Of a stretch of DNA of 64,000 nt, positions 30,425 to 60,606 are shown in pieces (within the stretch, counting starts at the first letter, position 1; every line of letters starts with the position of its first letter). The stretch lies in assembly GCA_024875585.1 (NCBI GenBank), contig GCA_024875585.1_4107.1; one strand, 5' to 3'. The position numbers and the translations under genes were made by a program. The DNA comes from a phage. The notes under the pieces are model-generated. The model ran no database searches. It had not been told where the DNA came from and was given only the letters and a program-made list of their open reading frames with translations.

Positions 30425-31563
30425 CCCTTTTGCAAATATATGAAGATTTAATGCACTTGTGCAATACAAACGATGCGTTCTTTTATGTGGATCATAAAAG
30501 TCCTGCTGGTGGAACGTATCGTGTATTCAGTTATCGTCTAGCATCATATACTGATTTCATGCAACCCAATGCATTAGAAACCCGTGGATCTATGTGGGAA
30601 ATTGATGAAGAAGGTAATATGATTCGTTGTGCTGCTCGTACTATGAAAAAGTTCTTTAATGCTTACGAGAATCCTGCTACAATGTTCCCTGCTAACACCA
30701 CATGCGATGACATTGCAGTAGTGATGCCTAAATTGGATGGTTCAGTGATCAGTACTTACCGTGACAATGATGGTGAGATTCGTTGTAAATCACATACTGC
30801 ATTGTATTCTGACCATGCGATTAACAGTACTCGACTTATTAACGAGAACCAGAATCTATATCAGTACATCGATGAAGCTGAACGTTTAGGTTACACAGTT
30901 AATATGGAGTATACAAGCCCAGAGTACCGAATTGTATTACCGTATCAGGTAGAACAATTGTTTGTGCTGAACGTTCGTCATCGTGTAAGTGGTGAGTTGC
31001 TATGTGGTAAAGCATTACGTGATAAGTTTCCATGTCTTTCACAGTACAGCACTAATATGACAGGAAAAGATATTCATCACACTTTTCCTGTGCGAAATTC
31101 ATTCCGTGAAAGCGTTGATGAAGTTCATAAAATGCTTGACATTGAGGGTTTTGTTTGCATTTTAAAAGATGGGACAATGTGTAAAATAAAGACTGACTGG
31201 TACAGTTCATTACATCTTACAAAAGATAGTATTATTATTGATTCTCATTTATATGAAGCTGTATTAAATGGTTCAAGTGATGATTTAAAACAATTGTTCA
31301 GTTCTGACGAATATGCTATGCAAAAGATATTAAGAATGGAACAGTTGGTTTTTTCGTGCTATAATGCATTACAAGATGAAGTAGAAAGCTTCGTCAATGA
31401 ACACAAGCACTTAGAGCGAAAGGAATTCGCATTGAAGGTTCAGACGTGCTTATCTAGTGAACTGAATCGTCAGGGCTTGGCATTTGCAATGTATAATAAT
31501 AAGAAAGTTGATTACAAAGATACACTTATCAAATACATGAAAATTATACTAAAAGATTTTTAG
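30421..31563 (+). CDS. rnlA: RNA ligase 1 (T4 gp63/RnlA-like)
   Basis: 380 aa; N-terminal GGTYRVFSY...ALETRG and KxDG adenylation motif (MPKLDGS), laid out as I recall T4 Rnl1. Confidence 0.88.
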   Translation: MTLLQIYEDLMHLCNTNDAFFYVDHKSPAGGTYRVFSYRLASYTDFMQPNALETRGSMWEIDEEGNMIRCAARTMKKFFNAYENPATMFPANTTCDDIAVVMPKLDGSVISTYRDNDGEIRCKSHTALYSDHAINSTRLINENQNLYQYIDEAERLGYTVNMEYTSPEYRIVLPYQVEQLFVLNVRHRVSGELLCGKALRDKFPCLSQYSTNMTGKDIHHTFPVRNSFRESVDEVHKMLDIEGFVCILKDGTMCKIKTDWYSSLHLTKDSIIIDSHLYEAVLNGSSDDLKQLFSSDEYAMQKILRMEQLVFSCYNALQDEVESFVNEHKHLERKEFALKVQTCLSSELNRQGLAFAMYNNKKVDYKDTLIKYMKIILKDF

Positions 31564-32659: not shown

Positions 32660-33592
32660 ATGCCAACTATCACCTTAACAATTGGGTTGCCTGGGTGTGG
32701 TAAAACTACATGGGCAGTGCAAGAGATTAAAAACGCCAAATCTAAGACTATCAACATCAACCGTGATGATATTCGTGAATCTATGGCGGGGTCACATGAT
32801 GCTTACAAATTCAACGATGCTAATGAGCAGTACGTAACTACTTTACAGTTCAGTGCAGCAAATTTAGCAGCAGAGAATGGTTGGAACATCATCATATCCG
32901 ATACGAACCTTAAACAACATTTCCGTGATCTCTGGAAAGTATGGGCTAAAGATAATGATTATGATTACAAAGAAAAGAACTTCTATGATGATTTTGTACC
33001 TAATGAAGACCGTGGTGCAGATGTTCATGAATTCTTTAAGATTAAAGAGTTCGTAAAACTTTGTAAGAAATATAACCGCCAGCGTGAGCGTTCAGTACAA
33101 GATAATATCATTGACACTATGGCAGATACTTACTATTATAGTAAAGCAATGCACATTGGTTACTATGGTAATTCAAGAGAAGCCGCTGTTATCGTTGATA
33201 TTGACGGAACTCTTGCTCATAAATGGGGTCGTAATCCTTACGATGAAAGTACTGTACTACAAGATACACCAGATGAAGAAGTTATTTTGTCTATTATCGC
33301 TGAAGCAGTTTTCCATAAACGTAAGATTATTGTAATGAGTGGGCGTACTGAAGGGTGTCGTGCAGACACAGAACAGTGGCTTAAGAATTGGGGTGTTCCT
33401 TACGATGCATTGTTTATGCGAGGCATCGATGATAAACGACCCGATGATGTGGTAAAATATGAGTTGTATATGAATAACGTCGTGCATCATTACGATGTTA
33501 AAAAAGTATACGATGACAGATCACAAGTCGTATTCATGTGGCGTAAACTACTTGGATTAAAAGTGATGCAAGTTGCAGAAGGAAATTTCTGA
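32660..33592 (+). CDS. pseT: polynucleotide 5'-kinase/3'-phosphatase (T4 PseT-like)
   Basis: P-loop GLPGCGKTT in the N-terminal kinase domain; HAD phosphatase motif DIDGTLA plus DDR near the C-terminus; AAGGAG RBS. Confidence 0.9.
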   Translation: MPTITLTIGLPGCGKTTWAVQEIKNAKSKTININRDDIRESMAGSHDAYKFNDANEQYVTTLQFSAANLAAENGWNIIISDTNLKQHFRDLWKVWAKDNDYDYKEKNFYDDFVPNEDRGADVHEFFKIKEFVKLCKKYNRQRERSVQDNIIDTMADTYYYSKAMHIGYYGNSREAAVIVDIDGTLAHKWGRNPYDESTVLQDTPDEEVILSIIAEAVFHKRKIIVMSGRTEGCRADTEQWLKNWGVPYDALFMRGIDDKRPDDVVKYELYMNNVVHHYDVKKVYDDRSQVVFMWRKLLGLKVMQVAEGNF

Positions 33593-39909: not shown

Positions 39910-41328
39910 ATGAGCATTTTAGCAATTCTTGAAAGCATTAAAAATACTAGCAGTACTCTGGGTAAAAAAGCTATCCTTGAACAAAACAAAGATAACCAAA
40001 CATTACAAAAAGTACTGAAATATACACTAGACCCTTCAATTGTAAGTGGGTATAAAAAGCTACCACAAGCTGATGATGTATACCAACATATGACATTAGA
40101 TGAAGCAATTGATAAGCTAGAATGCATTTACAAACGTGGTGTAACCGGAAATGCTGGACGTGACTTCATTGCTTCAGTACTGGGTTCTGTATCTGAAGAT
40201 GATCAGGAAGTTCTACGAAGAATGCTCACTAAGAACCTTGATTGTGGTATTCAAGAAAAGAACTGCAATGATGTGTTCGGGAAAGGTTTTATCAAAGACG
40301 AACCATACATGCGTTGTTCTTTAATTGACAAAAAGACTGCAAAGAACATTAACTTCAAAGATTATGGTTATGCTATATCAGAAGTGAAAATGGATGGTCA
40401 GTACTTGAACCACGTTGTCATTAATGGTTCATTAACTTCTACATCCCGTAATGGTAAACTATACGACTTCCTGGGTTGTCGTGATGGTGAGATGGCAGGT
40501 CTTGCTCACATCATCCAAAGTAAAGATGAACGTTTTAGTAGTGGTGTAGTCTTTATGGGTGAAGGTGTAGTACTGGACAATGATGGAGAAACCATTCTCC
40601 CACGCACTACTGGCAATGGTATAATTCAGAAAGCTGGAAAAGATAGTATCAGTCAGAATGAAGCAATGCGTACTGTATTTGTTCTATGGGATGTTGTTCC
40701 ATATGATGCATTTTGTGAAGGTGTATGGGATGTAAAACGTAAAGAACGTCGCGAGATCTTAGTAGATGCAATTAACGAACTCAGTAGTGATTTTGTTCGT
40801 ATGGTTGGATTCCGTAAAGTTCTAAACATCAAAGAAGCATTTGAGTACAATAGTGAACTAATGAACGAAGGTGAAGAGGGTTCAGTACTGAAATGTGAAG
40901 ATGGTATCTGGAAATCTCACACTTCTCCTAAGCAATTGAAAATGAAACTCAAAATGCAACTGGACTTGCGTATTGTTGGTTTCAATGAAGGTGAAGGTAA
41001 GCGTAAAGGTAGCCTTGGTTCTTTACAACTGGAAAGTGCGTGTGGTACATTGAAAGTTAATGTAGGTACAGGTATCCGTGAAAAAGATGCCGAATGGACA
41101 TTTAAAACTATCTGGGAAAGAATGCAAGAACTTATTGGTAAAGTGGTTACAGTTGAGTGTAATGACATTGTATTCGATAAGCGTACTGGTGAACCATCAC
41201 TATTTTTACCTGTATTTATTGAATTTAGATTTGACAAAAACACTTGCGACGATTATACTCGTATCTTAGAAATTCGTGATAGTGCAGTTGAAGTGTTTTC
41301 AAACAGTATTATTGAAGCATTAGGTTAA
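39910..41328 (+). CDS. ATP-dependent DNA ligase (T4 gp30-like)
   Basis: adenylation motif I KxDG (SEVKMDGQY); N-terminal ILEQNKDN and C-terminal LPVFIEFRFDK match T4 ligase as I recall it; 472 aa. Confidence 0.9.
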   Translation: MSILAILESIKNTSSTLGKKAILEQNKDNQTLQKVLKYTLDPSIVSGYKKLPQADDVYQHMTLDEAIDKLECIYKRGVTGNAGRDFIASVLGSVSEDDQEVLRRMLTKNLDCGIQEKNCNDVFGKGFIKDEPYMRCSLIDKKTAKNINFKDYGYAISEVKMDGQYLNHVVINGSLTSTSRNGKLYDFLGCRDGEMAGLAHIIQSKDERFSSGVVFMGEGVVLDNDGETILPRTTGNGIIQKAGKDSISQNEAMRTVFVLWDVVPYDAFCEGVWDVKRKERREILVDAINELSSDFVRMVGFRKVLNIKEAFEYNSELMNEGEEGSVLKCEDGIWKSHTSPKQLKMKLKMQLDLRIVGFNEGEGKRKGSLGSLQLESACGTLKVNVGTGIREKDAEWTFKTIWERMQELIGKVVTVECNDIVFDKRTGEPSLFLPVFIEFRFDKNTCDDYTRILEIRDSAVEVFSNSIIEALG

Positions 41329-41347
41329 CCATTTATTGGAGGTAATT

Positions 41348-45807: not shown

Positions 45808-45836
45808 AAAAAGGAGCCGCATGGCTCCTTTTTTAT
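45805..45836. terminator. bidirectional rho-independent terminator
   Basis: AAAAAAA - hairpin aggagcc-gcat-ggctcct - TTTTTT; sits between convergent plus and minus transcription units. Confidence 0.8.
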
Positions 45837-46073
45837 GTTTTTACGTAAGATGTATAGATCATTATGTAATTTGATTTTGTTAATCATATACATAGTACAA
45901 AAACCTTCAACATCTGCTTTTTCATCTTTCAATTTAATGAAGAAAGTATCATCTCTTAGACTTTCATCTGAATTTTCGATACTATCAATAGAAAAAGGAA
46001 GTCTTCCGGTTAATGTAATTATTCTTCTCTAAGGAAAGTGCATGATAATTATCATGCACTATATTATTAAAAA

Positions 46074-48746
46074 TTACGCACTGATTGTTACAGTTGCAGT
46101 ATCTTTTTTATTACCATCCACAGTAGTCACTGTAATGATTACAGAACCTTCTTCTAGAGCAGTTACTAATCCATCATCACTAATAGATACTTTAGTAGGT
46201 TCATCTGCACTATAAGTTACTGATTTGTTAGTTGCTTTAGCTGGAAGAACTTCAGGAACTAGTTGAACTGTTTTAGTTCCTGATAGTGAAAGTTCAGTAG
46301 TTTTAGGTGTTAAACTAACACTGGATACTGGAACTGGAATATTAACGATTACTGATGTTTGACCAGTAACATCACTACCATCAGCGGCAGTAGCGATAAT
46401 ATTTGCAGTACCATTAGTTAGTGCAGTTACGATACCAGTATTAGCATCTACTTTAGCAATTTCTGGAGCACTGGATGACCAAATTACTTTTTTATTGGTT
46501 GCATTACTTGGGGTAATTGCAGCAGTCATCTGTTTAGTTGCATTCAATGTAGTCAAAGTTTGATCTTTAGGAGTTACATCAATTGCAGTTACTGGCACTG
46601 GAATATTAACAGTAATAACACCTTGACCTGTTTTACCACTTCCATCAGCAGCAGTTGCGATAATGTTTGCAGAACCGTTAGTTAACGCAGTTACAACACC
46701 AGTACTAGCATCTACTTTCGCTACAGCAGGTTTACTGGAAGACCATGTTACAGATTTATTTGTTGCGTTAGTTGGAAGAACTTCAGCAGCCATTGCTTGA
46801 GTTGCGTTAACAGCAGTCAATGTTTTAGTTGCTGGAGTAACATTAATAGATGCGACTGGAACTGGAATTGCTACAGTTACCGCACATTTTGCAGTTTTTG
46901 CTCCATCAGCAGTTGTTACTGTGATATCAGCAGTGCCATTTGCTACAGCAGTGATTAAACCAGTTGGACTAACAGTTGCCACTCCATCAGCAGAAGTACT
47001 ATAAGTTACTGCTTTGTTGGTAGCATTAGGTGGTAGTACAGTTGGTGTTAGTTGTTGAGTATCACCGACTGAAGTTAATTTAGCACTTGTTGGAGATACT
47101 GATACACTTGCAACAGGAACTGGAATATTAACATTTACCACGCAAACTTTAGTAAATCCACCATCAGATGTGGTTGCTGTAATATTTGCAGTACCGTTTG
47201 CAACAGCAGTGATTAAACCAGTTGGACTTACCGTTGCGACACCCTCAGCAGAAGTAGTGTATGAAATATCTTTACGACGAGCGTTATCTGGAATAACAGA
47301 TGCAGTTAGTTGTTGAGTAGCACCTACAGAAGTTAGGGTTGCTGTCAACGGAGTCATATTAATACCAGTTACTGGGATCGTTACATCAATCACTGATTCA
47401 GCAGTTTTAGCACCATCATCAGTGGTAACAGTAATAGTTGTAGTACCGTTATCAACCGAAGTTACTAGACCAGTATTGCTAACTTTTGCCACGTCTGGAT
47501 ATGAAGAAACATATGAAACTGCTTTATTGGATGCAGTTGTAGGAGCAACGGTTGTTTCTAATTGTTTAGTATCACCTAATGTTGAGAATGTATAAGTACT
47601 AGGAGTCATAGTGACACCAGATACAGGTGTTTTCACAGTGATAGTAGTAGTATCAGTTTTAGCACCATCTTCGGTTGTTGCTGTAATCACCACTGTACCG
47701 TTAGCAACACCAGTTACTAGACCAGAAGTAGGGTTAACAGTTGCTATATCAGGTGTTGCTGAAGACCACGTGACGTTTTTATTAGTTGCATCATCAGGAG
47801 ATATTGTAGCAGTTAATTGTTGAGTACCGCCAACGTTAATTGTTGCAGTTTTAGGAGAAACAACAACACCACTAACTGGAGTTGTTACAGTAACAGTACA
47901 TTTTGAAACAAATATGCCATCAACAGTAGTTGCAATTACATCAGTACTACCATCTGCAACACCAGTTACCATACCAGATGGACTTACAGTTGCGACGCGT
48001 GGTATACTAGATAACCAATTAACACGTTTATCACTTGCATCATCGGGTGATACGGTAGCTGTTAGTTGTTGAGTTTTACCAACACTAAGAGATAGAGTTG
48101 AAGGAGAAACAACAACACCACTAACTGGAGTTGTTACGGTAAATGCACAAACATCAGTGAAACCACCATCATGAGTAGTAACTGTTACATTTGCGTTACC
48201 ATTAGCACGGGCAATTGCTAAACCAGTTTGAGCATCAACTTCAACAATTGTTGGAGCAGAGGAACTATAACTTACTGTTTTATCATTTGCATAATCTGGA
48301 TCAATTGTAGCTGATAGCTGTTGTGTACTACCAACTTTAAGTGCTACTACTTTAGGTGAAATAATTACACCATCAACTGGAGTAGTATAATCACGTTTAA
48401 CCACACGACCATTGTTCAATTTAATAATACGACCCATATAAAGAGTAGTATATCCTTTACTAATCCCATCATCTACATAAATCATGAATGAATTGTCTTG
48501 AACCATATTAATTGCGTCTACTGGTTTAACGGAATTTGGAATGTCGATACCACGGGTATCATACCAACACATGGAAACTTTGTAATAGATATCACCATTA
48601 TCATTTATGAGATCATAAACGTTACTGGAACGTTGACGGTTAATATATAAAGTTTCGGTTAACACCTTACCATCGATTTTAGCGACAGAAACTTTAATAC
48701 CACCAATACCAAATGGCAATTTACCTTCACTAGATATTGCTTTCAT
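46074..48746 (-). CDS. Ig-like (Big_2) repeat virion surface protein, Hoc-like or adhesin-like
   Basis: 890 aa; unique N-terminal ~120 aa followed by about nine ~85-aa repeats (VSGVVVSP...TQQLTAT..PDDA..K.V.WSS...ATV...GLVTGVANGT); only long minus-strand gene; AAGGA RBS. Confidence 0.7.
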   Translation of the reverse strand: MKAISSEGKLPFGIGGIKVSVAKIDGKVLTETLYINRQRSSNVYDLINDNGDIYYKVSMCWYDTRGIDIPNSVKPVDAINMVQDNSFMIYVDDGISKGYTTLYMGRIIKLNNGRVVKRDYTTPVDGVIISPKVVALKVGSTQQLSATIDPDYANDKTVSYSSSAPTIVEVDAQTGLAIARANGNANVTVTTHDGGFTDVCAFTVTTPVSGVVVSPSTLSLSVGKTQQLTATVSPDDASDKRVNWLSSIPRVATVSPSGMVTGVADGSTDVIATTVDGIFVSKCTVTVTTPVSGVVVSPKTATINVGGTQQLTATISPDDATNKNVTWSSATPDIATVNPTSGLVTGVANGTVVITATTEDGAKTDTTTITVKTPVSGVTMTPSTYTFSTLGDTKQLETTVAPTTASNKAVSYVSSYPDVAKVSNTGLVTSVDNGTTTITVTTDDGAKTAESVIDVTIPVTGINMTPLTATLTSVGATQQLTASVIPDNARRKDISYTTSAEGVATVSPTGLITAVANGTANITATTSDGGFTKVCVVNVNIPVPVASVSVSPTSAKLTSVGDTQQLTPTVLPPNATNKAVTYSTSADGVATVSPTGLITAVANGTADITVTTADGAKTAKCAVTVAIPVPVASINVTPATKTLTAVNATQAMAAEVLPTNATNKSVTWSSSKPAVAKVDASTGVVTALTNGSANIIATAADGSGKTGQGVITVNIPVPVTAIDVTPKDQTLTTLNATKQMTAAITPSNATNKKVIWSSSAPEIAKVDANTGIVTALTNGTANIIATAADGSDVTGQTSVIVNIPVPVSSVSLTPKTTELSLSGTKTVQLVPEVLPAKATNKSVTYSADEPTKVSISDDGLVTALEEGSVIITVTTVDGNKKDTATVTISA
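46150..48400 (-). repeat. tandem ~250-270-bp coding repeats (Ig-like domain units)
   Basis: recurring DNA blocks such as actggaactggaat...gcagtaccatt within the Big_2 gene. Confidence 0.6.
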
Positions 48747-48782
48747 ATACTTTCCTTTATAAATTGTATTGTATTGTTATAT

Positions 48783-48790
48783 TATTTATA
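48783..48790 (-). promoter_or_regulatory. T4-type late promoter TATAAATA
   Basis: exact TATAAATA on the minus strand about 40 nt upstream of the Big_2 start codon. Confidence 0.55.
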
Positions 48791-49058
48791 TTATAACAAA
48801 ATTATTTTAGTATTAAAAAGGAGTTCTAATGTTCCTTTATATTTTAAAGGAACATACTGTGTAAATCTGGTTTGGTCAGGTAAATCTTTCGGAGAGAAGG
48901 AAGTAGTGAATGACATTTTATCATTAAAATCATCTCCTTACCTTTAAAATAGAATTGTAAACTGCCTCCTAATATGATACCATAGTTCAAATGGTAAATC
49001 AATGAACTTAACAAAAAAAACACTTGATACTACAGTCATAATTGTTCAGTTTTTGTGC

Positions 49059-49087
49059 TTGACATAATTAATCAATTATTGTACTAT
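49059..49087 (+). promoter_or_regulatory. sigma70-type promoter TTGACA-N17-TACTAT
   Basis: in the divergent intergenic region upstream of ORF 49123. Confidence 0.5.
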
Positions 49088-49122
49088 TAATAATGTTCCT
49101 TAACTCAAATCCGAGGTAATTA

Positions 49123-49728
49123 ATGAAACGATTATTGAAAGAGATTATACAAACCGTTGTTATAATTGCTGCATTAAACTTTCCAGCGGCGGCAGAAGTT
49201 TCAAAAAAAGCATCTGTTTTTCTATTAAATGATCATGTTGGGTCAATTGATGGTGAACTAAATGATAAAACTGTACAAGATGTGGAGCAGTTGTGGAAAG
49301 AAAAAAAATTTAAAATTTTAACAATTACATCACCTGGGGGTGATTTTGATGCTGGTATTAAAATGGGAAATTTTGTTAGAGACAATGGTATAAATTTAAT
49401 TGTTTCTAGATATTGCAATTCAGCATGTACTGTGGTATTCTTTAGTGTGTCCCCTGAAAAACGATATATGACAAATCAATCAGTACTGGGATTACATAAC
49501 ATTTCAATCAAAAGTAACGTTAGAGATAGGGATAATACTTTTGTATCTGTTAGACAATTATCAACATTTACTGAAGAAATGGCAACAAAAGTAGGATTTT
49601 TATTTACACTATATTCAGCTAATGGAATTCCACCTAGCGTTCTATATAGAGTTAGTCGTGCACGTGGTGAAGATGTTGTTATCTTAACAAAAAAAGACCT
49701 AATTCATTACGGTTCGGTAAATCCATAA
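49123..49728 (+). CDS. secreted ClpP/crotonase-fold protein (putative periplasmic protease)
   Basis: N-terminal signal-peptide-like segment (VVIIAALNFPAAAEV); TSPGGDFDAG resembles the ClpP/SppA GG motif. Confidence 0.4.
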   Translation: MKRLLKEIIQTVVIIAALNFPAAAEVSKKASVFLLNDHVGSIDGELNDKTVQDVEQLWKEKKFKILTITSPGGDFDAGIKMGNFVRDNGINLIVSRYCNSACTVVFFSVSPEKRYMTNQSVLGLHNISIKSNVRDRDNTFVSVRQLSTFTEEMATKVGFLFTLYSANGIPPSVLYRVSRARGEDVVILTKKDLIHYGSVNP

Positions 49729-49796
49729 AAATAATTATAATAACAGGATGATTATGTTGTTCTTCCTTTGTTATTAACTATATCGGAAATATAACT

Positions 49797-50057
49797 ATGA
49801 CAAACATCCAGAATTTGACGTCTATTATTTTTTATGCTACAGTGGTGATGTATGCTATTGTACTTATTTTAACAGTTTTTATTTACAAAGATTACAAAAA
49901 AGGCTTTATTAATAGTACAACAATGAAGTTCAATTCTAAATTTGAAGCAATTATATTTTATGTTTTGACAACATCATATTTGTTGTGTATAATGTTACTA
50001 GGGTCATTGATTTATATTTTATATACAACATTATTTGCAATTGGAGCTATTTTATGA
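49797..50057 (+). CDS. small membrane protein (3 predicted TM)
   Basis: 86-aa hydrophobic ORF. Confidence 0.45.
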   Translation: MTNIQNLTSIIFYATVVMYAIVLILTVFIYKDYKKGFINSTTMKFNSKFEAIIFYVLTTSYLLCIMLLGSLIYILYTTLFAIGAIL

Positions 50058-50650
50058 CATGTATTATTGCACACACTGATGGTGTAACTTCATTTATTGC
50101 AGGGGACAAGATGGGGAGTGATGGTTTTACGAAATCAATCCAAACAGAGCCTAAAGTGTTTGAGAAAGAATTTGTAAAGATTAGTGGTGATGACGGCTTG
50201 ACTCGTACAAAAGATGTTATGACAATTGGATTCACTACATCATTTCGTATGGGTCAACTGCTAACTTATAATTTAAATTTACCAGACCAAAATTCAAATG
50301 AGACGTTTCTACAGTATTTAGTACTGAAAGTTATTCCTCTTATTCGTCAAATGTTTAAAGACGAATGGGGTGCACGTGATACAACCCAAGATGTTGGTGG
50401 TGGTCAATTTATTATTTTACACAATCATACGATTTATGAAATTCAGGAAGATTTTTCGGTTCTCCAGTCAAAATCAAGAGTTGCATCTGTTGGTAGTGGT
50501 ACATATCATGCAATTGCAGCTATGCAAGCATATATTGATCTTGAGAAAGAAACTAACGTACAACTACATGAACGTATCAAATCCATTTTCAAAATTGTTA
50601 GTGATAATGTATCGAGTGTAAGCGAAGAGTTTGATGTATTAAAATATTAA
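50054..50650 (+). CDS. HslV/proteasome-beta-like N-terminal nucleophile hydrolase
   Basis: begins M-T-CIIAHTDGVTSFIAGD (Thr at position 2; cf. HslV TTIVSV..IAGD); later GSGTYHAIAAMQA resembles HslV GSGGPYAQAAA. Confidence 0.5.
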   Translation: MTCIIAHTDGVTSFIAGDKMGSDGFTKSIQTEPKVFEKEFVKISGDDGLTRTKDVMTIGFTTSFRMGQLLTYNLNLPDQNSNETFLQYLVLKVIPLIRQMFKDEWGARDTTQDVGGGQFIILHNHTIYEIQEDFSVLQSKSRVASVGSGTYHAIAAMQAYIDLEKETNVQLHERIKSIFKIVSDNVSSVSEEFDVLKY

Positions 50651-50665
50651 AATTATAAGAGAGAA

Positions 50666-50860
50666 ATGATGGCATACACAATTTATGAATGGATTTTGAG
50701 TTTTATTATAGTATTTTTTATGGTTGTAATTTACAATAATGCTAAATGCTTATATAGAGATTTAAAATCCAATGGTTATCATGCAAACAATAATTTAATG
50801 TATGCCTATCATATTGGAATCATTCTATTATTATCAATATATTTAATTGGTTTTATTTAA
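50666..50860 (+). CDS. small membrane protein (2 TM)
   Basis: 64-aa hydrophobic ORF. Confidence 0.45.
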   Translation: MMAYTIYEWILSFIIVFFMVVIYNNAKCLYRDLKSNGYHANNNLMYAYHIGIILLLSIYLIGFI

Positions 50861-50869
50861 GGATTGCGT

Positions 50870-51622
50870 ATGATATCAGAAAAATTTATAAGTAATGAGG
50901 GAAACAAGAGATTACTTATTATCTCAGGAGCAGGTCTTTCCGTTGAAAGTGGGATGGAGCCATTTCGATTTGATGATGGCTTATGGGATACATTTAAAAT
51001 TAATGACGTATGTAATATTGCAAATTTAGATACAAAATATCATGTTGTTCATTCGTTTTATAACACACTGCGTGTTAAACTGGGTCAATGTGAACCAAAT
51101 GCAATGCATTATTTTATAAAATCCTTAGAGGACCAATATGGTGATTGTTTTCTTCATATGACCTCCAATATGGATGATCTTTATACACGTATTGGTGGCA
51201 AAGAACTAAAACTTCATGGTAATTTATGTGAAGTGATAGAAAATTATAGTATTAATGGTGATGATTATAACATTGTTAACTGTGGTTATGAGCCATATAT
51301 ACCAAAACATGATGTTTTTGCTAAACCAAATGTAGTGATGATTGGTGAATATCACCGTTATGTTGATGGTGTTCGTTTGCCAATATATGAAGAAAGAAAT
51401 AATGTTTTAAAAACACTTAATGAAAACGATACTGTGATTGTTATTGGAAGTAGTGATACAGTACTTGTGTGGTCCAGATTAGCTGCGGCATTACCCTGTT
51501 ATAGCGTTAATGTTAACATTCGTAAAAATGATAATGATTTTCTGTTCAATGAAAAAATTATTCAACCAGCTACCAAAGCAATACCACAATTAGAGACTAT
51601 AATTAAGGAACGTATGAAATGA
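50870..51622 (+). CDS. Sir2-family NAD-dependent deacylase/ADP-ribosyltransferase-like protein
   Basis: sirtuin motifs GAGLSVESGMEPFR, TSNMDDL, LHG, VMIGE, VIGSS; AAGGA RBS. Confidence 0.7.
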   Translation: MISEKFISNEGNKRLLIISGAGLSVESGMEPFRFDDGLWDTFKINDVCNIANLDTKYHVVHSFYNTLRVKLGQCEPNAMHYFIKSLEDQYGDCFLHMTSNMDDLYTRIGGKELKLHGNLCEVIENYSINGDDYNIVNCGYEPYIPKHDVFAKPNVVMIGEYHRYVDGVRLPIYEERNNVLKTLNENDTVIVIGSSDTVLVWSRLAAALPCYSVNVNIRKNDNDFLFNEKIIQPATKAIPQLETIIKERMK

Positions 51623-52170
51623 GTGTTAAAGAAGTTCCCTTTGGTGAATATGGTTCACGTGCCAATTTTGTATTTTGCTATTTCTTTGCAAGAAAATGTA
51701 ACCCTTACGAAAATTACGAATTGAATGATATACCAGAAGTAAATTTAGTATTACTTCAATTACGTTGGGATGGCCTTCTAGGGGGATGTGGTGGGACAGT
51801 TGAAAGTACTGATATCTCACTAGAAGATGCGTTACGTCGTGAAATTCAAGAAGAGATGGATTACAATATTTTTGTTTCCCATCTTCGACCACTTAAAACT
51901 TTTGAAATTTACCCAGGTGCAAACAGTCATAGTTTTAGCTATGAAGTAACCTATGATGAGTTGAAACACATTAGAGATGGATACACTAATGCTAAACATG
52001 CGAGTGCTGAAGTGGCTGGTGTAAATTTATGTCATATTTCTCGTTATTCTAAGGGACAAAATCGAGAAGCGGGATATAATAATCTTATGACTCAGAACTT
52101 CATTGGTACAGCAAAACAAGAATTGGAGTATCTGGTTCAAAAAGAAAACTTACTAATTAGTTATCTATAG
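51619..52170 (+). CDS. Nudix hydrolase
   Basis: Nudix-box-like GG..E...LRREIQEEMD (spacing not fully canonical); ATGA overlap with the Sir2 gene. Confidence 0.55.
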   Translation: MSVKEVPFGEYGSRANFVFCYFFARKCNPYENYELNDIPEVNLVLLQLRWDGLLGGCGGTVESTDISLEDALRREIQEEMDYNIFVSHLRPLKTFEIYPGANSHSFSYEVTYDELKHIRDGYTNAKHASAEVAGVNLCHISRYSKGQNREAGYNNLMTQNFIGTAKQELEYLVQKENLLISYL

Positions 52171-52179
52171 GAGTTTAAC

Positions 52180-52500
52180 ATGTCTTACTCAATGTTTTTG
52201 GATGATATCCGTGATGCAAATCTATATTATCCAAACCAAGATATGGTGGTATGTCGTGACTTTAAAAGTGCATGTGAATATGTTATTGAAAATGGAATTC
52301 CAGCATTTGTATCATTCGACCATGACTTGGGTGATGTGAGCGAAGACGAAAAGACTGGATATTCTTTTGCTAAGTTTCTTATTGATTATATGTTTGATAA
52401 TAATATTAAAGAACCGTTTGAGTACTTTGTTCACAGTAGTAATCCTGTTGGTAAAATTAATATTGAAACATACTTAAACAATGGGTTTAACGCATTATGA
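52180..52500 (+). CDS. hypothetical protein (possible receiver-like fold)
   Basis: 106-aa ORF; acidic DD...SFDHDLGD pattern. Confidence 0.4.
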   Translation: MSYSMFLDDIRDANLYYPNQDMVVCRDFKSACEYVIENGIPAFVSFDHDLGDVSEDEKTGYSFAKFLIDYMFDNNIKEPFEYFVHSSNPVGKINIETYLNNGFNAL

Positions 52501-52799
52501 TTCAAACACACATCAAAAGTCTTATTTGTACTGTTCTGTTAGGTGTAGGTGTTCTTTGGTTCGGATATTATCACGAGAACACTAAGCGTACTAACATTCA
52601 CTACAATACCGCAGAAGTTGTTAGTTTAGGGCAATGTAGTGAGTCAAAATGTGCATTTACGTACAAAACCAGTAATGGTGAAATACGTAATGGACTATCA
52701 AGAGAACCAGTTTCGATTGGTCAACTTGTTTACCAGGAGTGCTGGGAAGAAAAGGTTCGAGGTTCACGTTGCTATGTTGAATACGAACCAAATATGTAA
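52497..52799 (+). CDS. small membrane-anchored protein
   Basis: 100-aa ORF with N-terminal TM helix. Confidence 0.5.
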   Translation: MIQTHIKSLICTVLLGVGVLWFGYYHENTKRTNIHYNTAEVVSLGQCSESKCAFTYKTSNGEIRNGLSREPVSIGQLVYQECWEEKVRGSRCYVEYEPNM

Positions 52800-52859
52800 T
52801 AATCCAAGTCAATAACATTAGTCGAGTACAAGGATGTACTCATAACTCAAGGATGTTTT

Positions 52860-54299
52860 ATGAAAAAATATACAATTGACACAAACGTACTACTATCTGA
52901 TCCAAATGCGTCTGTTGCTTTTGATGGTGCTGCAATCATTCTACCATTTACAGTACTGGAAGAATTGGATTCGATTAAGAGTCGCAATGTTGATGTTTCA
53001 CGTGATGCTCGTGTTGCGATTCGTAACATTGAAGCAATTATTGCAGAGGCATCACATAATGAGATTAGTTGTACTGGTGTTAATATTGCTGATGTTCATA
53101 CCAATATGAATCCTGATAGCAAATTGTTTGTTATTACAACCGAAGAAGCTGAGGCACTAATTCGTACTAAAGGTTCAGACGAGAAAGTTCAAACCCTTCT
53201 TAAAAGTACTGTACCTGATGATAAAATTATTCTGGTAGCTTTAGCAACCGAATCAGTACTGGTAACTCGTGATATCAACATGCGTATCAAAGCACTAAGT
53301 TATGGTGTCGAGGTACAAGACTATCGTCATGATATTGTTATTGGTGATAGTGATTTGATGCACATTGGTCAACATCATTTGGAACTCAATTTTTGGGATG
53401 TATATAGCAATTTAGCAAATACAAATATTAAAACTGAACAAATTGGTCGTCGATTGTATCATTACATTCCTAAAAGCTTGATTGGTCATTTACTTCCACA
53501 AAATCTATGCATTGGTGATTATCTATATGATGATGCTGATGTATTATTTGTATATGAAGGCCAATCAGCCATTGAGGAAGATGATGGCACACTAACACCA
53601 GAAGATATTTTGGTATTCCAAGACATTGGTCAATCTGTAGCTTTGCGTGCTAAAGTATGGGATATTAAAGCAAAGAATATTCAACAAGCACTTGCAATCA
53701 ACAGTATTCTCGATCCTGATGTACACCTAACAGTGCTGCTAGGTTCTGCTGGAACTGGCAAAACATTAATTACGATTGCTACTGCACTAGAGTTAGTACT
53801 GGAAAAACGCAAATACGACCGTATTATCTTCTCTAAAACACAAGATTCACAGTTTGAAGATATAGGATTCTTGCCAGGTTCTGAGACAGAGAAAGTTATC
53901 CCATTCTGTGGACCTGCAATTGATGCTCTTGAGTATCTTCATAAAGATGATGTATCACCACAAGGTAGCATCGAAGAGATTCTCAAACGTAACGTGATGC
54001 AATTTAAAGCATTGAACTTTATTCGTGGTCGTTCTTTTGCCAATACAATTCTAATTGTGGATGAAGCACAGAACTTAACACCAGCCCAGTTAAAAACTGT
54101 CTTGACAAGAGCCGGAGAAAACTGTAAAGTAATCATACTTGGTAACCTAGCACAGATTGATAACAAGTTTATCAGTCCAGTAAACAGTGGTTTGACATAT
54201 GTAACTGAAAAATTCAAGGATTGGAGTGGTTGTCGTATCATTGAATTAGAAGGTGTTGTTCGTTCACCACTTGCTGAATTTGCTGAAGAAAATATGTAA
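52860..54299 (+). CDS. phoH: PhoH-like ATPase with N-terminal PIN domain
   Basis: PIN-like N-terminus (YTIDTNVLLSDP...LEELD); Walker A GSAGTGKT and Walker B IVDEAQN. Confidence 0.85.
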   Translation: MKKYTIDTNVLLSDPNASVAFDGAAIILPFTVLEELDSIKSRNVDVSRDARVAIRNIEAIIAEASHNEISCTGVNIADVHTNMNPDSKLFVITTEEAEALIRTKGSDEKVQTLLKSTVPDDKIILVALATESVLVTRDINMRIKALSYGVEVQDYRHDIVIGDSDLMHIGQHHLELNFWDVYSNLANTNIKTEQIGRRLYHYIPKSLIGHLLPQNLCIGDYLYDDADVLFVYEGQSAIEEDDGTLTPEDILVFQDIGQSVALRAKVWDIKAKNIQQALAINSILDPDVHLTVLLGSAGTGKTLITIATALELVLEKRKYDRIIFSKTQDSQFEDIGFLPGSETEKVIPFCGPAIDALEYLHKDDVSPQGSIEEILKRNVMQFKALNFIRGRSFANTILIVDEAQNLTPAQLKTVLTRAGENCKVIILGNLAQIDNKFISPVNSGLTYVTEKFKDWSGCRIIELEGVVRSPLAEFAEENM

Positions 54300-54367: not shown

Positions 54368-54556
54368 ATGGCTAAACAACCCAAGAAAAAAGAACCAGTA
54401 GCTAAAGTTAAAAAAGAAAAAGTTATTCAATCCAAAGAACAACGTATGTACGAACAACGTAAGAGTGAAACTCTATCTGGGCTACAAGCTCTACGCAAAC
54501 AAGGTATTCTAACTCGTGCACAATATCGTGAACTAGTATCTATGAAAGGTTTTTGA
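54368..54556 (+). CDS. small basic protein
   Basis: 62-aa Lys-rich ORF with AAAGGAG RBS. Confidence 0.5.
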   Translation: MAKQPKKKEPVAKVKKEKVIQSKEQRMYEQRKSETLSGLQALRKQGILTRAQYRELVSMKGF

Positions 54557-54657: not shown

Positions 54658-54688
54658 TTATCCCTGTCAATTGGCAGGGATTTTTTTC
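54658..54688 (+). terminator. rho-independent terminator
   Basis: hairpin tccctg-tcaattgg-caggga then TTTTTTT. Confidence 0.75.
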
Positions 54689-55368: not shown

Positions 55369-55698
55369 ATGAGCAAAATTAATGTTGATGTAGTTATTGG
55401 TTATATTGAAATTGAACCGTGTAGTATTGATACAATGATTGACACTCTTAGTAAGTATCGTTTAGAGTACAGGGGACATATTAGTATTTCGCCCGACGGT
55501 GGTTACGGTGGATTCCATGGATACAATGTAATTTGGACCAGAGAAGAAACTGACGAAGAATATAATACACGAATTGAAGCTGAATCTAAAAGACGTGAAG
55601 AAATTGATCGTCAAGAAATGAAACAATTAATGAACAAGAAATCATTAAGTTCCGAAGAGAAAGAAAAACTTCTAACATACATCAAGGATTACATGTAA
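55369..55698 (+). CDS. hypothetical protein
   Basis: 109-aa ORF. Confidence 0.55.
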   Translation: MSKINVDVVIGYIEIEPCSIDTMIDTLSKYRLEYRGHISISPDGGYGGFHGYNVIWTREETDEEYNTRIEAESKRREEIDRQEMKQLMNKKSLSSEEKEKLLTYIKDYM

Positions 55699-56537
55699 TG
55701 AAAAATGTAACTCAAGAAAAGATTCTGTACCTTGCAAAGTACAATGGTGGTTTCAATATCATTAGCCGTGAGTATCGTGGTAATTTGGCTAAGTTGATTG
55801 ACAGCTTGTTAGAATTCGATTTCATTAAATGGGAAACTAATGAACTTTGGTATGAATATGCTGGTCAGAAATGGGAAAGTGATTATGATAATGCAACACA
55901 TACCTATACTATCACCAAAGCAGGTGAAGTTCGTCTATTGATTTATCGTCTAGCATATGCTTATAAGAATCATAAAGATACTGATAAGCACCAACGTAGG
56001 ATTGATGAATTACAGCAAGCACTTCAACAATATGATTTAGATATTAATAATTTCAAAGATTGTTGTTCTAAGAATGAACTTAAAGCAATTAATGATTTCA
56101 ATAGTAAGACCACAAATGTTGAATTAACTGATTCTGTTGACTTAGAACTTTCACCATACAATACCAATCCTACTTGGGGAAGAACTCTTACTAATATCAA
56201 TGATATTGATTTCAGCCAACCAGCACTGAATAATATGTTCCAAATGAGTTCAATGCTGGGTGCTAAAGGTTTTGATGCGTCAAGAACTGATGATTATGTT
56301 CTTCGTAAAATAAATGAAGAACTTGGTGAAATGACACTTGAAATGAACATCCGTGATGGGTTATCATATAAAGAAGCAGGTAAAGATGGTGTCAAAGGTG
56401 AAGCTGTAGATCTTTGCATTTGTGCACTTGACATGTTCGCTTTGCAATGCGATAATATGAGTCCAGAAGAGATGGAACGTGAGTTCCTTACTTACATGAA
56501 TGTTAAACTAGCCAAATGGCGTAAATCAATTCAATAG
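55698..56537 (+). CDS. hypothetical protein with possible C-terminal MazG-like NTP pyrophosphohydrolase domain
   Basis: EELGEMTLE ... GEAVDLCICALD resembles the MazG EExxE/ExxD pattern (weak). Confidence 0.5.
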   Translation: MKNVTQEKILYLAKYNGGFNIISREYRGNLAKLIDSLLEFDFIKWETNELWYEYAGQKWESDYDNATHTYTITKAGEVRLLIYRLAYAYKNHKDTDKHQRRIDELQQALQQYDLDINNFKDCCSKNELKAINDFNSKTTNVELTDSVDLELSPYNTNPTWGRTLTNINDIDFSQPALNNMFQMSSMLGAKGFDASRTDDYVLRKINEELGEMTLEMNIRDGLSYKEAGKDGVKGEAVDLCICALDMFALQCDNMSPEEMEREFLTYMNVKLAKWRKSIQ

Positions 56538-56545: not shown

Positions 56546-57517
56546 ATGAAAACTAAAATTATTTCTGAACAAAAAATCGGCAATACTACAGTACTGAATC
56601 TTGAAGTTCAAGATCTTAGTAATGTTCGTTCTCTTACTGTTTGTACTCAGAGAGATGATTTGACTGATTTTTATAGCTCCGAATACATGTCAGAAGAACA
56701 TTGGGATATGGGATGGTTAGACGGTAGTAGTTATATCAGTTCTCGTTATAGTTTTGGTTCTCATGAAAATATTGAACAAGTAAAAAATGAGTATATTAAA
56801 CTCAGTGATACTATTGAAATGAAAGAAGAAGATTGTGTAGAACTTTTCATTTTTGAATTCGATGCAGGAAATGGTAATTCATTACTAGTAAGTAATATTG
56901 AAGAACATTTAATGTATCATGATATTGAAGATGTAGATTTTAAAAGTATTAAAAATGTTGTTCATATGGTTGGTGGTAGTATTACTGATGATTCAGATAT
57001 CGGTCATAATATTTCACTGTGCTTAATTTCTCATCCAAAAACTCGTGGTTTTAAAGTTCCACAAGATGAAACTTACGTGTTTGAAACTGCTGATGAAGGA
57101 ATTTATCCTTGGAATGATTATGTAGAATACTATGGTCATTTCTGTTCTGATATAAAAGAACTGAAAAAAGGCGAACGATATTTTGATATGTTCCGTGCTG
57201 CACAGCGTTTAGTACTGAATAATACTGAACTATTTCCTGATCGCGGTGAAGAAAATATGATTGATATTATCTTCAAGAACTATGATTATGTGCAGAACAT
57301 TCCTGATAATGTACATTTGGAATATGTTCACGGTTCTTCAAACAAATTCTATAATATTGAATTGAATGCTCCAGTGTGTGAAGTAATCATTGAGTACGGT
57401 GCTATTGGTAAAACCAGTACTACCGATGGTGAAGAATTCGAAACTATTGAAGAAGCACGTAAGTTCTTCGAGAAGAAAGTAATTTCCAAAATTAAAAGTG
57501 GTTATATCCCAAAATGA
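56546..57517 (+). CDS. hypothetical acidic protein (323 aa)
   Basis: long ORF. Confidence 0.55.
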   Translation: MKTKIISEQKIGNTTVLNLEVQDLSNVRSLTVCTQRDDLTDFYSSEYMSEEHWDMGWLDGSSYISSRYSFGSHENIEQVKNEYIKLSDTIEMKEEDCVELFIFEFDAGNGNSLLVSNIEEHLMYHDIEDVDFKSIKNVVHMVGGSITDDSDIGHNISLCLISHPKTRGFKVPQDETYVFETADEGIYPWNDYVEYYGHFCSDIKELKKGERYFDMFRAAQRLVLNNTELFPDRGEENMIDIIFKNYDYVQNIPDNVHLEYVHGSSNKFYNIELNAPVCEVIIEYGAIGKTSTTDGEEFETIEEARKFFEKKVISKIKSGYIPK

Positions 57518-58927: not shown

Positions 58928-59292
58928 ATAGTAAATTGGAGAAATTAATCGAAGAATTACGCCAGATGCCACCGATTGAACAAGTAGGTAATTATAAACG
59001 GTATCGTATTATTGCTCGTGCACTTGATAAAAAAGGTCGAGTACTGGCAACTCGCACCAATTCTTATACACAGACTCACCCTAAGCAGAAAAACTTTGCA
59101 GTTAAAGCTGGAAGAAATGATGCAATATGGTTACATGCTGAAATAAGCTGTTTACTCGCAGCAAGGGCTGATGTTCACACATTATTAATTGCACGGGTTA
59201 GTAAAGATGGAATTCCCGTTTCTGCAAAACCATGTGAAATTTGCTCTTTAGCAATACAAGAATACGGAGTAGTTGAAGTAATACATACATAG
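58924..59292 (+). CDS. CDA-fold zinc deaminase (short)
   Basis: HAE (HAEISCL) and PCxxC (PCEICSL) zinc-binding motifs; 122 aa. Confidence 0.55.
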   Translation: MNSKLEKLIEELRQMPPIEQVGNYKRYRIIARALDKKGRVLATRTNSYTQTHPKQKNFAVKAGRNDAIWLHAEISCLLAARADVHTLLIARVSKDGIPVSAKPCEICSLAIQEYGVVEVIHT

Positions 59293-59305
59293 GTAGAATA
59301 TTTTC

Positions 59306-59596
59306 ATGGAAGAAATAAAAAAAGAATTAAATCAATTTAATGAATACGTATATAATTTGTATTTTAATAAAAATATTATTTTTACTTGGATGAAACCTGA
59401 AGATATAAAGTATATAAAAACATCATCATCAAGTAAATCTCCATTTTACTTTGAAAAATTAATACTCAATAAATCATTTTCAAATTATCATTTTGAATTT
59501 CTTGGTTTTAATATAAAAAAATCAGATGATTGGATAGGAAAGCTTACAAATATAGTAATTAAGTTGAATGATATAATATATATATACGTAACATAA
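59306..59596 (+). CDS. hypothetical protein (very AT-rich)
   Basis: 96-aa ORF. Confidence 0.45.
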   Translation: MEEIKKELNQFNEYVYNLYFNKNIIFTWMKPEDIKYIKTSSSSKSPFYFEKLILNKSFSNYHFEFLGFNIKKSDDWIGKLTNIVIKLNDIIYIYVT

Positions 59597-59610
59597 AATC
59601 TTTTTTGGAG

Positions 59611-60384
59611 ATGCCTGTGACTCTCAAGCGTGTCCCATATGTGATTCATAATTCTAATAATATTAGTTACTATTTAAACAAATACAATAAAAATTTAAAA
59701 TATATAAATTGTATGTATGATAAAATCAATGAAAAAACTTATTTAGATTTACAATGTAAAATATGTGGTTATGAATATAAATCATGTTTAAACAATATTA
59801 AACATAGAAATACAGATTGTCCTGGTTGTATGAATAATGTTGTATTATCTGAAGATGATATGTTATATAGAATAACATTGAAATTATATACACAGCCACA
59901 TATAAAATTATTAAATTTCAACTATAATAACGGTGGTAATAAGAATGCAATAGGTACATATTATTGTGAAATACACAATTATACATGGGATTCTATGTAT
60001 TTTGGGACAATTGCAAAAGATCAAAGTTGTAAACTTTGTATGCAAGGTCAATCTAAAGGTGAAAAATATATCACTGAAATATTGGATAATTTAAAGGTAA
60101 ATTATATAAGAGAATATAAATTTGATAAATGTTTTAATCAAAGAAAATTACCTTTTGATTTTTATATTCCAGATTTCAATTTATGTATAGAATATGATGG
60201 AAGACAACATTTTGAATCTGTGGATTTTTATGGTGGAAACGATGCTTTTTTTATAAGAAAAAAGAATGATGAAATAAAAAATTCATTCTGTGAAAATAAT
60301 AATATTACATTATTAAGATTTAATGATCTCAATTTTTCTCGTATTGAATCAACATTGAATAGAATACTAAAAAGTGTTAAATAA
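59611..60384 (+). CDS. putative freestanding endonuclease (zinc-finger N-terminus, Vsr/DUF559-like C-terminal domain)
   Basis: several CxxC pairs; C-terminal FDFYIP..CIEYDGRQHF...RFN pattern; very AT-rich. Confidence 0.45.
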   Translation: MPVTLKRVPYVIHNSNNISYYLNKYNKNLKYINCMYDKINEKTYLDLQCKICGYEYKSCLNNIKHRNTDCPGCMNNVVLSEDDMLYRITLKLYTQPHIKLLNFNYNNGGNKNAIGTYYCEIHNYTWDSMYFGTIAKDQSCKLCMQGQSKGEKYITEILDNLKVNYIREYKFDKCFNQRKLPFDFYIPDFNLCIEYDGRQHFESVDFYGGNDAFFIRKKNDEIKNSFCENNNITLLRFNDLNFSRIESTLNRILKSVK

Positions 60385-60606
60385 ATGAAAATTGAACGCT
60401 ACCAAAACCATACAGTTGTGGCTGAAGATGATATATTTTATTATTATATTTTCAGACCCACACACTGTTTACAAATAACGACATTTGAGAATGATAATTT
60501 CAAAGATGTCAACTTCCATATAACAGATTTAGCTAAATATTCCAGTACTGAACACTTTAGTAATCTAGTATTTGTGTACTGTATTCCAAACTCAAATAAT
60601 AAGTAG
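60385..60606 (+). CDS. hypothetical small protein
   Basis: 73-aa ORF. Confidence 0.45.
   Translation: MKIERYQNHTVVAEDDIFYYYIFRPTHCLQITTFENDNFKDVNFHITDLAKYSSTEHFSNLVFVYCIPNSNNK

Follow-up and report, generated by a model that had tools for sequence, protein, structure and literature searches.

A 64-kb stretch of phage DNA (64,000 nucleotides, contig GCA_024875585.1_4107.1 of GenBank assembly GCA_024875585.1; hereafter the window) was analyzed, where positions 50870 to 54299 were found to hold a block of five genes encoding a sirtuin (Sir2), a Nudix hydrolase, a cyclic-phosphate-processing receiver-like (cREC) domain protein, a small protein, and a PIN-PhoH protein. A 4-kb query around the Sir2-Nudix pair recovered 40 phage records, the top of which was Escherichia phage UE-S1 (97.8% identity), a 358-kb member of the genus Asteriusvirus, and the phages 121Q, PBECO4, and their relatives matched at about 89% identity. 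The window is that of an Asteriusvirus jumbo phage, with a G+C content of about 32% over its entire length. The first two genes of the block carry the GenBank labels "Sir2-like protein / NAD-dependent deacylase" and "nudix hydrolase" in the matching phage records; they had been annotated previously and are not new. Likewise, the block is the Asteriusvirus ortholog of a sirtuin-centered jumbo-phage system already predicted in print, with Serratia phage BF (AQW88637.1) as the example (Iyer et al., 2022; Viruses 14:1977, PMC9503650, section 3.7.3), and all three neighborhood types of that section were reproduced among the loci studied here.

The Sir2 and Nudix genes had been described in a first-pass annotation of the DNA sequence as translationally coupled through an ATGA overlap. 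This was borne out, as the two open reading frames (ORFs) share 4 nt and the junction reads CGT ATG AAA TGA / ATG AGT, with the Nudix ATG at 51619-51621 and the Sir2 TGA at 51620-51622. Shine-Dalgarno sequences of the AAGGA type were found upstream of both start codons, and the Sir2 ORF has an in-frame TTG at 50864 in addition to its ATG at 50870. Both genes are retained down to 44-56% identity in other genera, and the ratio of nonsynonymous to synonymous substitution rates (dN/dS) relative to phage 121Q was 0.029 for Sir2 and 0.031 for Nudix; they are therefore real genes and no chance ORFs. Purifying selection was observed for all five block genes in the same comparison (dN/dS of 0.03 to 0.29, the value of the small protein gene being 0.29). 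The synonymous rate (dS) relative to 121Q (locus L006) was uneven across 50870-54299, with 0.955 for Sir2, 0.223 for Nudix, 0.035 for cREC, and 0.434 for PIN-PhoH. This 27-fold spread between adjacent genes suggests mosaic exchange, with recombination breakpoints within the block.

Viral contigs were scanned with an alignment of Sir2 homologues, which yielded 50 loci, and ORFs were called in all of them and searched with the window proteins. The order Sir2, Nudix, cREC, small protein, and PIN-PhoH2 was kept in 21 of 21 RaK2-like loci, with Sir2 identities of 42-95%; the small protein and PIN-PhoH were scored in the loci long enough to reach their position and were present in every one. These loci include 121Q, RaK2, Serratia BF, Yersinia fHe-Yen9-04, CBB, GAP32, and metagenomic relatives. 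The two contigs whose Nudix homologues are the most divergent (identities of 61% and 56%) have the same order of Sir2, a Nudt16-like protein, cREC, a protein of about 100 aa, and PIN-PhoH, and just upstream of the block they carry Nampt together with an NMNAT-Nudix gene of the NadM type. In the loci L012-L021, of the BF, CBB, GAP32, and Yen9-04 lineages, Nudix and cREC form a single ORF of about 300 aa in which both domains were confirmed by Pfam, and this fusion in one polypeptide ties the two hydrolases to one pathway. It is firmly established that a sirtuin with intact motifs is coupled to a NUDT16-type Nudix hydrolase, that the latter is fused or adjacent to cREC, and that a small membrane protein and PIN-PhoH2 always come next. 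The pair had initially been placed in a locus together with an HslV-like hydrolase, a secreted ClpP-like protein, and small membrane proteins (49123-52799). That boundary was revised, since the conserved partners are the downstream cREC, small membrane protein, and PIN-PhoH2, whereas the upstream HslV-like and ClpP-like genes vary among relatives.

Translational coupling of Sir2 and Nudix is not universal, as an ORF of 122-123 aa lies between them in one jumbo-phage lineage (L008, 6750-7121; L010, 6750-7118); the L008 copy has no Pfam match. Sirtuins of the same clade were also found in other gene neighborhoods. In the rV5-like contig L053, the gene order is calcineurin-like phosphoesterase, T4-type RNA ligase, P-loop kinase, a gene of unknown function, Sir2, and ATP-dependent DNA ligase, and in the T5-sized genome L045 the Sir2 gene is followed by HAD_SAK_2, a "Swiss Army Knife RNA repair" phosphatase. 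The features of the block and its surroundings are collected in Table 1.

Table 1. Genes and sequence features of the Sir2-Nudix block, its flanks, and the RNA-repair genes of the window. AF2, AlphaFold2.
Feature	Position	Strand	Basis
Rnl1-type RNA ligase	30421-31563		encoded in the window
Polynucleotide kinase-phosphatase	32660-33592		encoded in the window
ClpP/NfeD-like protein, signal-peptide-like N-terminus	49123-49728	+	PHROG 26024 "protease" 1.4e-84; Pfam CLP_protease and NfeD1b_N both 0.004, under cut-off
Perfect sigma-70 consensus TTGACA-17-TATAAT	49965-49993	+	within ORF 49797-50057, upstream of the HslV-like gene
HslV-family-like protein	50054-50650	+	PHROG 1040 1.1e-21; weak NCBIfam HslV match 0.004
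Sir2, zinc-less sirtuin of a phage-specific clade, 250 aa	50870-51622	+	Pfam SIR2, PHROG 2162, AF2 model
NUDT16/X29-family Nudix hydrolase, 183 aa	51619-52170	+	Pfam Nudt16-like, PDB match, AF2 model
cREC domain protein, 106 aa	52180-52500	+	Pfam PF20274 1.5e-22, 80.5 bits (cut-off 27)
Small protein with N-terminal hydrophobic segment and Cys-rich C-terminal part, 100 aa	52497-52799	+	PHROG 14661 "membrane protein" 5e-42
PIN + PhoH (PhoH2-type) RNA nuclease/helicase-like protein, 479 aa	52860-54299	+	Pfam PIN_4 1.3e-20, PhoH 6.5e-46
Small Lys-rich ORF, 62 aa, last gene ahead of the terminator	54368-54556	+	annotated UES1_432 in UE-S1
Intrinsic-terminator-like hairpin, 9-bp stem and T run	54660-54681	+	terminator annotated at the equivalent place in UE-S1

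The sirtuin is a single-domain protein. It matched Pfam SIR2 (PF02146) at 4.3e-20 with 72.8 bits (cut-off 24) and PHROG 2162 at 6.5e-78, and a sequence search of the PDB returned E. coli CobB at the top (1e-22), followed by archaeal Sir2 proteins and Sirt5. Its AlphaFold2 model (predicted local distance difference test, pLDDT, of 92.9) has a Rossmann fold, with fold matches led by CobB at template modeling (TM) scores of 0.78-0.86. The motifs quoted in the first-pass annotation were all present, namely GAGLSVESGMEPFR at residues 20-33, TSNMDDL at 98-104, and LHG at 115-117. Among 30 Sir2 homologues, the residues G20, G22, S27, N100, D102, H116, and G117, which represent the NAD+-binding GAGxS and xNxD motifs and the catalytic His-Gly, were invariant; the catalytic residues on whose presence the earlier proposal of an active enzyme depended are all kept, and the proposal stands in this respect.

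Besides this intact core, the clade has several traits of its own. No conserved cysteine of the four-cysteine zinc module was found in the small domain of the phage sirtuin clade in the homologue alignment, where the zinc cysteines were kept only in the distant homologue P0042 and in CobB; this loss is a new detail of the present analysis. The Gln of the QNxD motif is replaced by Ser, Thr, or Ala. A nearly invariant and clade-specific Cys48 aligns with CobB Ala76, an acyl-pocket residue, and the position of CobB Arg95 is occupied by Leu, while Tyr64 is conserved and aligns with CobB Tyr92. The RaK2-like subgroup is marked by 8 additional residues inserted behind the GE motif, and the sirtuins of T5-like and rV5-like phages carry the same clade traits without this insertion. 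All NCBIfam deacylase equivalogs scored below cut-off against Sir2 (93.5 bits vs 318 for NF001755 and 86 vs 320 for NF040867). The PADLOC defense SIR2 models, of the ThsA, DSR1/2, SIR2-HerA, and pAgo-SIR2 type, gave no match to Sir2 at E <= 0.01, and no SLOG, HerA, or Argonaute family was matched by the neighboring genes scanned against Pfam. The analogy to NAD-depleting SIR2 effectors of defense systems that had been drawn for this protein was not upheld, as the nearest sequences and folds are of the CobB and Sirt5 type, and a defense-type SIR2 NADase was rejected as its identity.

The Nudix protein is assigned to the NUDT16/X29 family specifically, a family associated with RNA decapping, which is also a new detail of the present analysis. 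It matched Pfam Nudt16-like (PF22327) at 1e-18 with 68.3 bits (cut-off 27) and Pfam NUDIX at 1e-6, and the PDB sequence search returned only NUDT16, X29, and TIRR/syndesmos (2e-12). Its AlphaFold2 model (pLDDT 92.3) had human NUDT16 as the top fold (3COU and 2XSQ; TM 0.80, E 2e-14), with the next Nudix family at 4e-7, and the matches included NUDT16 complexes with ADP-ribose, di-ADP-ribose, IMP, and FAD. Among viral models, the top fold match was to the Nudix-cREC fusion of Pectobacterium phage CBB (TM 0.97). The Nudix-box residues G58, G59, E62, R74, E75, E78, and E79 were invariant in the homologue alignment. A profile search with HMMER of 1.84 billion representatives returned 473 relatives at E <= 1e-3, and a pattern scan of genome contigs returned no bacterial relatives with the patterns used. 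In the relatives P0088, P0092, P0142, and P0177, the Nudt16-like domain is fused to Ham1/ITPase, HD_4, and the cytidylyltransferase-like CTP_transf_like domain. The family serves several nucleotide-centered contexts beyond ADP-ribose, and its fusion partners are too varied to fix the substrate. A role in cleaning the nucleotide pool is given a low probability because of the cREC fusion and the coupling to Sir2. Human NUDT16 cleaves the pyrophosphate of protein-linked ADP-ribose and, on RNA ends that PARP10 or TRPT1 has modified, also removes the ADP-ribose signal (PMC6582358).

The third gene of the block had been counted among the small membrane proteins, which was wrong, as it encodes a cREC receiver-fold domain whose motifs LDD, SFDHDLGD, and HSxNPVG are invariant. 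Its stop codon is overlapped through ATGA by the start of the small protein gene. The PIN-PhoH gene was overlooked in the first-pass annotation; its product matched the NCBIfam model "RNA 5'-3' helicase PhoH2" at 2.4e-49, which is under the cut-off of that model. ORFs of the MAKQ...KK... type resembling the small Lys-rich ORF also come after PIN-PhoH in L002, L007, L008, and L012. The hairpin downstream likely represents the end of the transcription unit, as judged from the sequence.

Upstream of the block, the gene content varied among lineages. The ClpP/NfeD-like gene was also found upstream in RaK2-like loci, but NadM and Nampt stand there between it and Sir2, and the HslV-like gene was found upstream of Sir2 in L002, L003, L008, L009, and L011 and was absent from BF-type loci. 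The sigma-70 site is regarded as a consensus match only, because the count of promoter-like sites in the region was no higher than the shuffled expectation. NadM and Nampt were located 0.5-4 kb upstream of Sir2 in every RaK2-like lineage examined except Asteriusvirus. No match to Nampt or NadM was found in the 64-kb window, and none to Nampt, NadM, or the BF-type 2H protein by tblastn in the complete Asteriusvirus genome OR844650.1, a different isolate that is about 90% identical to the window. The 2H proteins of BF and L008 also gave no tblastn match in the window. Asteriusvirus therefore keeps the block without these neighbors, which indicates that the tight functional unit extends from Sir2 to PhoH2.

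The 2H gene encodes a protein of 148-151 aa and is located just upstream of Sir2 in BF, CBB, and related jumbo phages (L012, 5311-5757; L017, 5273-5719; L019, 5298-5753; L008, 5537-5983; L010, 5538-5984); a small zinc-binding ORF lies between the two genes in BF-type loci. The BF protein matched Pfam Acb1 (anti-CBASS; PF23474) over cut-off at 3.6e-15, and its significant PDB matches were Acb1 structures only. The 2H gene at this place had been read as a component of RNA-end healing (Iyer et al., 2022; PMC9503650). The occurrence of NadM, Nampt, and an Acb1-family 2H gene beside the block in other genera, and of none of them in the Asteriusvirus genome, is a further new detail of this study. 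With NadM and Nampt near the Acb1-family gene, the region in BF/CBB-type phages looks like a counter-defense island in its predicted gene content.

A gene at 23126-23659, 27 kb from Sir2, had been described as NMNAT-like and proposed as a partner of the pair. Its HNGH (residues 16-19) and SSTQMR (residues 136-141) motifs are present, and H16, G18, H19, S136, S137, and R141 were invariant in homologues, but these motifs are generic to the HIGH superfamily and the NMNAT identity was not supported. The protein scored 17.4 bits against NadD (TIGR00482; cut-off 112) and 0.019 against Pfam CTP_transf_like, which is under cut-off. No PDB match was found with either the single sequence or a profile, and no similarity to phage NadM was detected (BLASTP E 0.09); its PHROG label is "cytidyltransferase". 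An NMNAT partner of the pair was rejected on these grounds, and the protein is a nucleotidyltransferase of the HIGH superfamily with no link to the Sir2-Nudix pair. An upstream ORF with an NPPY motif, resembling a Dam-like N6-adenine methylase, overlaps this gene by 4 nt (22608-23659 for both), and such coupling suggests a role other than NAD+ synthesis.

Several other features of the window were observed. On the minus strand, and facing the block, 46074-48746 encodes an 890-aa protein with about nine or ten Ig-like repeats of the Big_2 type. The surrounding region 45834-49321 did not align to the ECO103 4-12-1 genome and aligned only patchily to UE-S1, where the Ig-repeat gene is shorter; this gene is hypervariable. 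At 55369-56537, two ORFs of 109 and 279 aa correspond to one 389-aa gene of UE-S1 (UES1_434), with a frameshift near codon 91. The split may mark a genuine pseudogene or come from an error in sequencing, and the 279-aa C-terminal ORF had no match in Pfam. At 56546-57517, 2.2 kb downstream of PIN-PhoH, a protein of 323 aa carries a WGR domain at its C-terminus (Pfam 1.9e-10), a domain that elsewhere occurs in PARPs and in some proteins of DNA repair. Five or six small ORFs (91-128 aa) that are paralogs of each other are arrayed in tandem at 24869-26727, several of them overlapping head to tail, with pairwise identities of 23-40% and BLASTP E values from 6e-9 to about 7e-4. Relative to UE-S1, the window has a 1.1-kb insertion at 59243-60388 that carries a DUF723-like ORF (match at 60025-60324), and it is without about 1.1 kb at about 41299-41338 that holds UES1_412 in UE-S1. 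A DUF723 gene also separates NadM from Nampt in the RaK2-like locus L005, in the manner of a mobile element of the endonuclease type.

The Sir2-Nudix pair had been proposed to form an NAD/ADP-ribose module together with the gene at 23126. A pair that consumes NAD+ and then degrades ADP-ribose is reasonable by homology, because the NAD+-binding and catalytic residues of Sir2 are kept and its partner belongs to the NUDT16 family, while the proposed NMNAT link did not stand. The RNA-repair proposal in print for the BF-type system had been passed over in the first-pass annotation. According to it, a KptA-like sirtuin removes RNA 2'-phosphates, and its partners either resolve cyclic phosphates or act on ADP-ribose cyclic phosphate (Iyer et al., 2022; PMC9503650). 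The cREC domain had been defined by Iyer et al. (2021; PMC7824862) as receiver-like, with links to RNA ligases and to enzymes of NAD+ and ADP-ribose. Here the block is tentatively read, at somewhat less than an even chance, as a system for the NAD+-dependent processing of damaged RNA ends. This reading is suggested by the association with RNA genes in three unrelated phage groups, the RNA-related Nudix family, and the persistence of the block without salvage and 2H neighbors. The conserved gene order of the RaK2-like loci, the Nudix-cREC fusion, and the ATGA overlaps at Sir2/Nudix and cREC/small protein were also counted in its favor, as was the lack of a macrodomain among the neighboring genes scanned.

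In such a pathway, the zinc-less sirtuin would consume NAD+, free nicotinamide, and pass ADP-ribose to an acceptor in a reaction like that of KptA/Tpt1. The most probable acceptor is a 2'- or terminal phosphate that a damaging nuclease has left on RNA. The NUDT16-type Nudix would then cut the pyrophosphate bond, and the cREC phosphoesterase would remove or open the cyclic or mono-phosphate. PIN-PhoH2 may handle the RNA, and the Rnl1-type ligase and polynucleotide kinase-phosphatase of the phage could seal the ends. It is considered unlikely that the phage sirtuin would be the first nucleic-acid-directed sirtuin, ADP-ribosylating RNA 2'- or terminal phosphates, with Nudix and cREC acting on RNA-linked ADP-ribose and not on a free by-product. 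Action of the Nudix on an RNA conjugate is suggested by the family assignment made here, and the RNA-directed idea is that of Iyer et al. (2022).

A number of points weigh against RNA-end processing. No experimental study of the module was found in literature searches, and the RNA ligase and kinase are located 17-20 kb upstream of the block in the window. Repair by T4-type Pnkp and Rnl1 requires no removal of 2'-phosphates, and PIN domains produce 3'-OH ends and not cyclic phosphates. To our knowledge, activity on RNA has been shown for no sirtuin so far. The nearest characterized relatives of Sir2 are protein deacylases (CobB), and the residues needed for deacylation are all present. Additionally, the NAD+ salvage and Acb1-family neighbors in other genera fit a role in counter-defense equally well.

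The relation to CobB raises the possibility that Sir2 is a CobB-like NAD+-dependent lysine deacylase acting on host or phage proteins, with Nudix and cREC destroying the by-product O-acyl-ADP-ribose or ADP-ribose. Sequence and fold matches led by E. coli CobB and Sirt5 agree with it, as do the conserved His116, N100, D102, GAGxS, and Tyr64, and Nudix enzymes such as Ysa1 control the levels of ADP-ribose and O-acetyl-ADP-ribose (PMC4004948). It is nevertheless judged somewhat doubtful, with the NCBIfam equivalogs far under cut-off, the zinc cysteines and the Gln of QNxD lost, a clade-specific Cys at the CobB Ala76 position, and no equivalent of CobB Arg95. Deacylation also leaves unexplained the invariable linkage to cREC and PIN-PhoH2 and the RNA-repair neighbors in rV5-like and T5-like phages. 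A decidedly less probable alternative is counter-defense, in which Nudix and cREC would degrade ADP-ribose-derived or cyclic nucleotide immune signals, such as the cyclic ADP-ribose isomers of Thoeris systems, or strip host-placed ADP-ribose from phage nucleic acids, with Sir2 supplying or modulating an ADP-ribose derivative. NadM and Nampt, which stand upstream of Sir2 in every RaK2-like genus examined except Asteriusvirus, are the two enzyme types of NARP2, a pathway shown to counter NAD+-depleting defenses (bioRxiv 10.1101/2024.02.11.579819). The Acb1-family 2H phosphodiesterase gene just upstream of Sir2 in BF, CBB, L008, L010, and L019 points in the same direction, and cREC, Nudix, and Macro domains have been proposed to degrade such signals (Iyer et al., 2021; PMC7824862). 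However, NUDT16-type Nudix and cREC proteins are not known to degrade signals, and counter-defense does not explain why a catalytically intact sirtuin would be needed. Asteriusvirus also retains the block in the absence of Nampt, NadM, and an Acb1-like gene, and in a large genome densely packed with genes adjacency counts for little.

Two further proposals depend on NAD+ turnover. A homeostasis loop, where Sir2 and Nudix would consume NAD+ and ADP-ribose and the nucleotidyltransferase at 23126-23659 would rebuild NAD+ from NMN, could draw on the HNGH and SSTQMR motifs of the latter and on the true NAD+ salvage genes beside the block in relatives. It is very improbable, as that protein has no NMNAT-level match, its gene is remote from the block and overlaps the Dam-like methylase ORF, and Nampt and NadM were found neither in the window nor in the complete Asteriusvirus genome. 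Even harder to credit is a phage-borne exclusion or abortive system with Sir2 as an NAD+-depleting effector like ThsA, DSR, or SIR2-HerA. Although Sir2 is a Sir2-domain protein with intact NAD+-binding residues, its nearest relatives are the true sirtuins CobB and Sirt5 and not the PADLOC defense types, it has neither a sensor nor a partner domain of the SLOG, HerA, pAgo, or long C-terminal sensor kind, and its gene belongs to the syntenic core of a jumbo-phage lineage that is lytic, often beside genes that rebuild NAD+.

If the sirtuin acts on RNA phosphates, or if the block dismantles ADP-ribose immune signals, a new activity would be added to the sirtuin superfamily, and in either case the cREC domain and a phage Nudix of the NUDT16 type would gain their first function. 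A nucleic-acid-directed sirtuin, with Nudix and cREC acting on RNA-linked ADP-ribose, would further imply either that RNA can be 2'-dephosphorylated independently of Tpt1 or that RNA is reversibly marked with ADP-ribose when phage and host nucleases are in conflict. The window offers a compact and well-delimited test case, with five genes, no linked 2H or NAD+ salvage genes, and a phage growing on E. coli.

Comparison with known systems placed the block closest to configuration 1 of Iyer et al. (2022), represented by BF, which has the same order of sirtuin, Nudix, cREC, and PIN protein and no macrodomain partner. All four genes occur within 50870-54299, and only the 100-aa gene lies between cREC and PIN-PhoH. 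Relative to the BF locus (L012), identities were 44% for Sir2 and 51% for Nudix-cREC, and PIN-PhoH matched at a phmmer E of 2e-217. The window differs from BF in having Nudix and cREC as separate genes, and HslV-like and small membrane genes upstream in place of 2H, Nampt, and NadM. In relation to NARP2 (Nampt and Nmnat), both enzyme types are encoded directly upstream of the block in the RaK2, K64-1-like, BF, CBB, GAP32, and Yen9-04 phages, where they are neighbors and not members of the block.

The individual proteins show a mixture of shared and divergent traits. With CobB and class III sirtuins, the phage Sir2 shares the Rossmann core, GAGxS, the N/D pair, and the catalytic His-Gly, at an identity to CobB of 27-28% in structure-based alignments and about 31% in the multiple alignment, while it differs in the missing zinc cysteines, Cys48, the Leu at the Arg95 position, the 8-residue insertion, and the altered Gln of QNxD. 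The Nudix resembles human NUDT16 and Xenopus X29 in its over-cut-off Pfam Nudt16-like match, its fold, and its Nudix box, but the identity is 24-28%, and in the phages it is either coupled to cREC or joined with it in one protein. The KptA/Tpt1 pathway, which combines Tpt1, a 2H cyclic phosphodiesterase, and ADP-ribose processing, would be similar in function only, as the candidate transferase of the phage has the Rossmann fold of sirtuins and not the ART fold. Finally, the SirTM-macrodomain pairs (PMC4518038) also couple a sirtuin genetically to an enzyme that can act on ADP-ribose conjugates, following a logic of writer and eraser. In contrast to these pairs, the phage sirtuin is partnered by Nudix and cREC instead of a macrodomain, and its closest solved relatives are of the CobB type.

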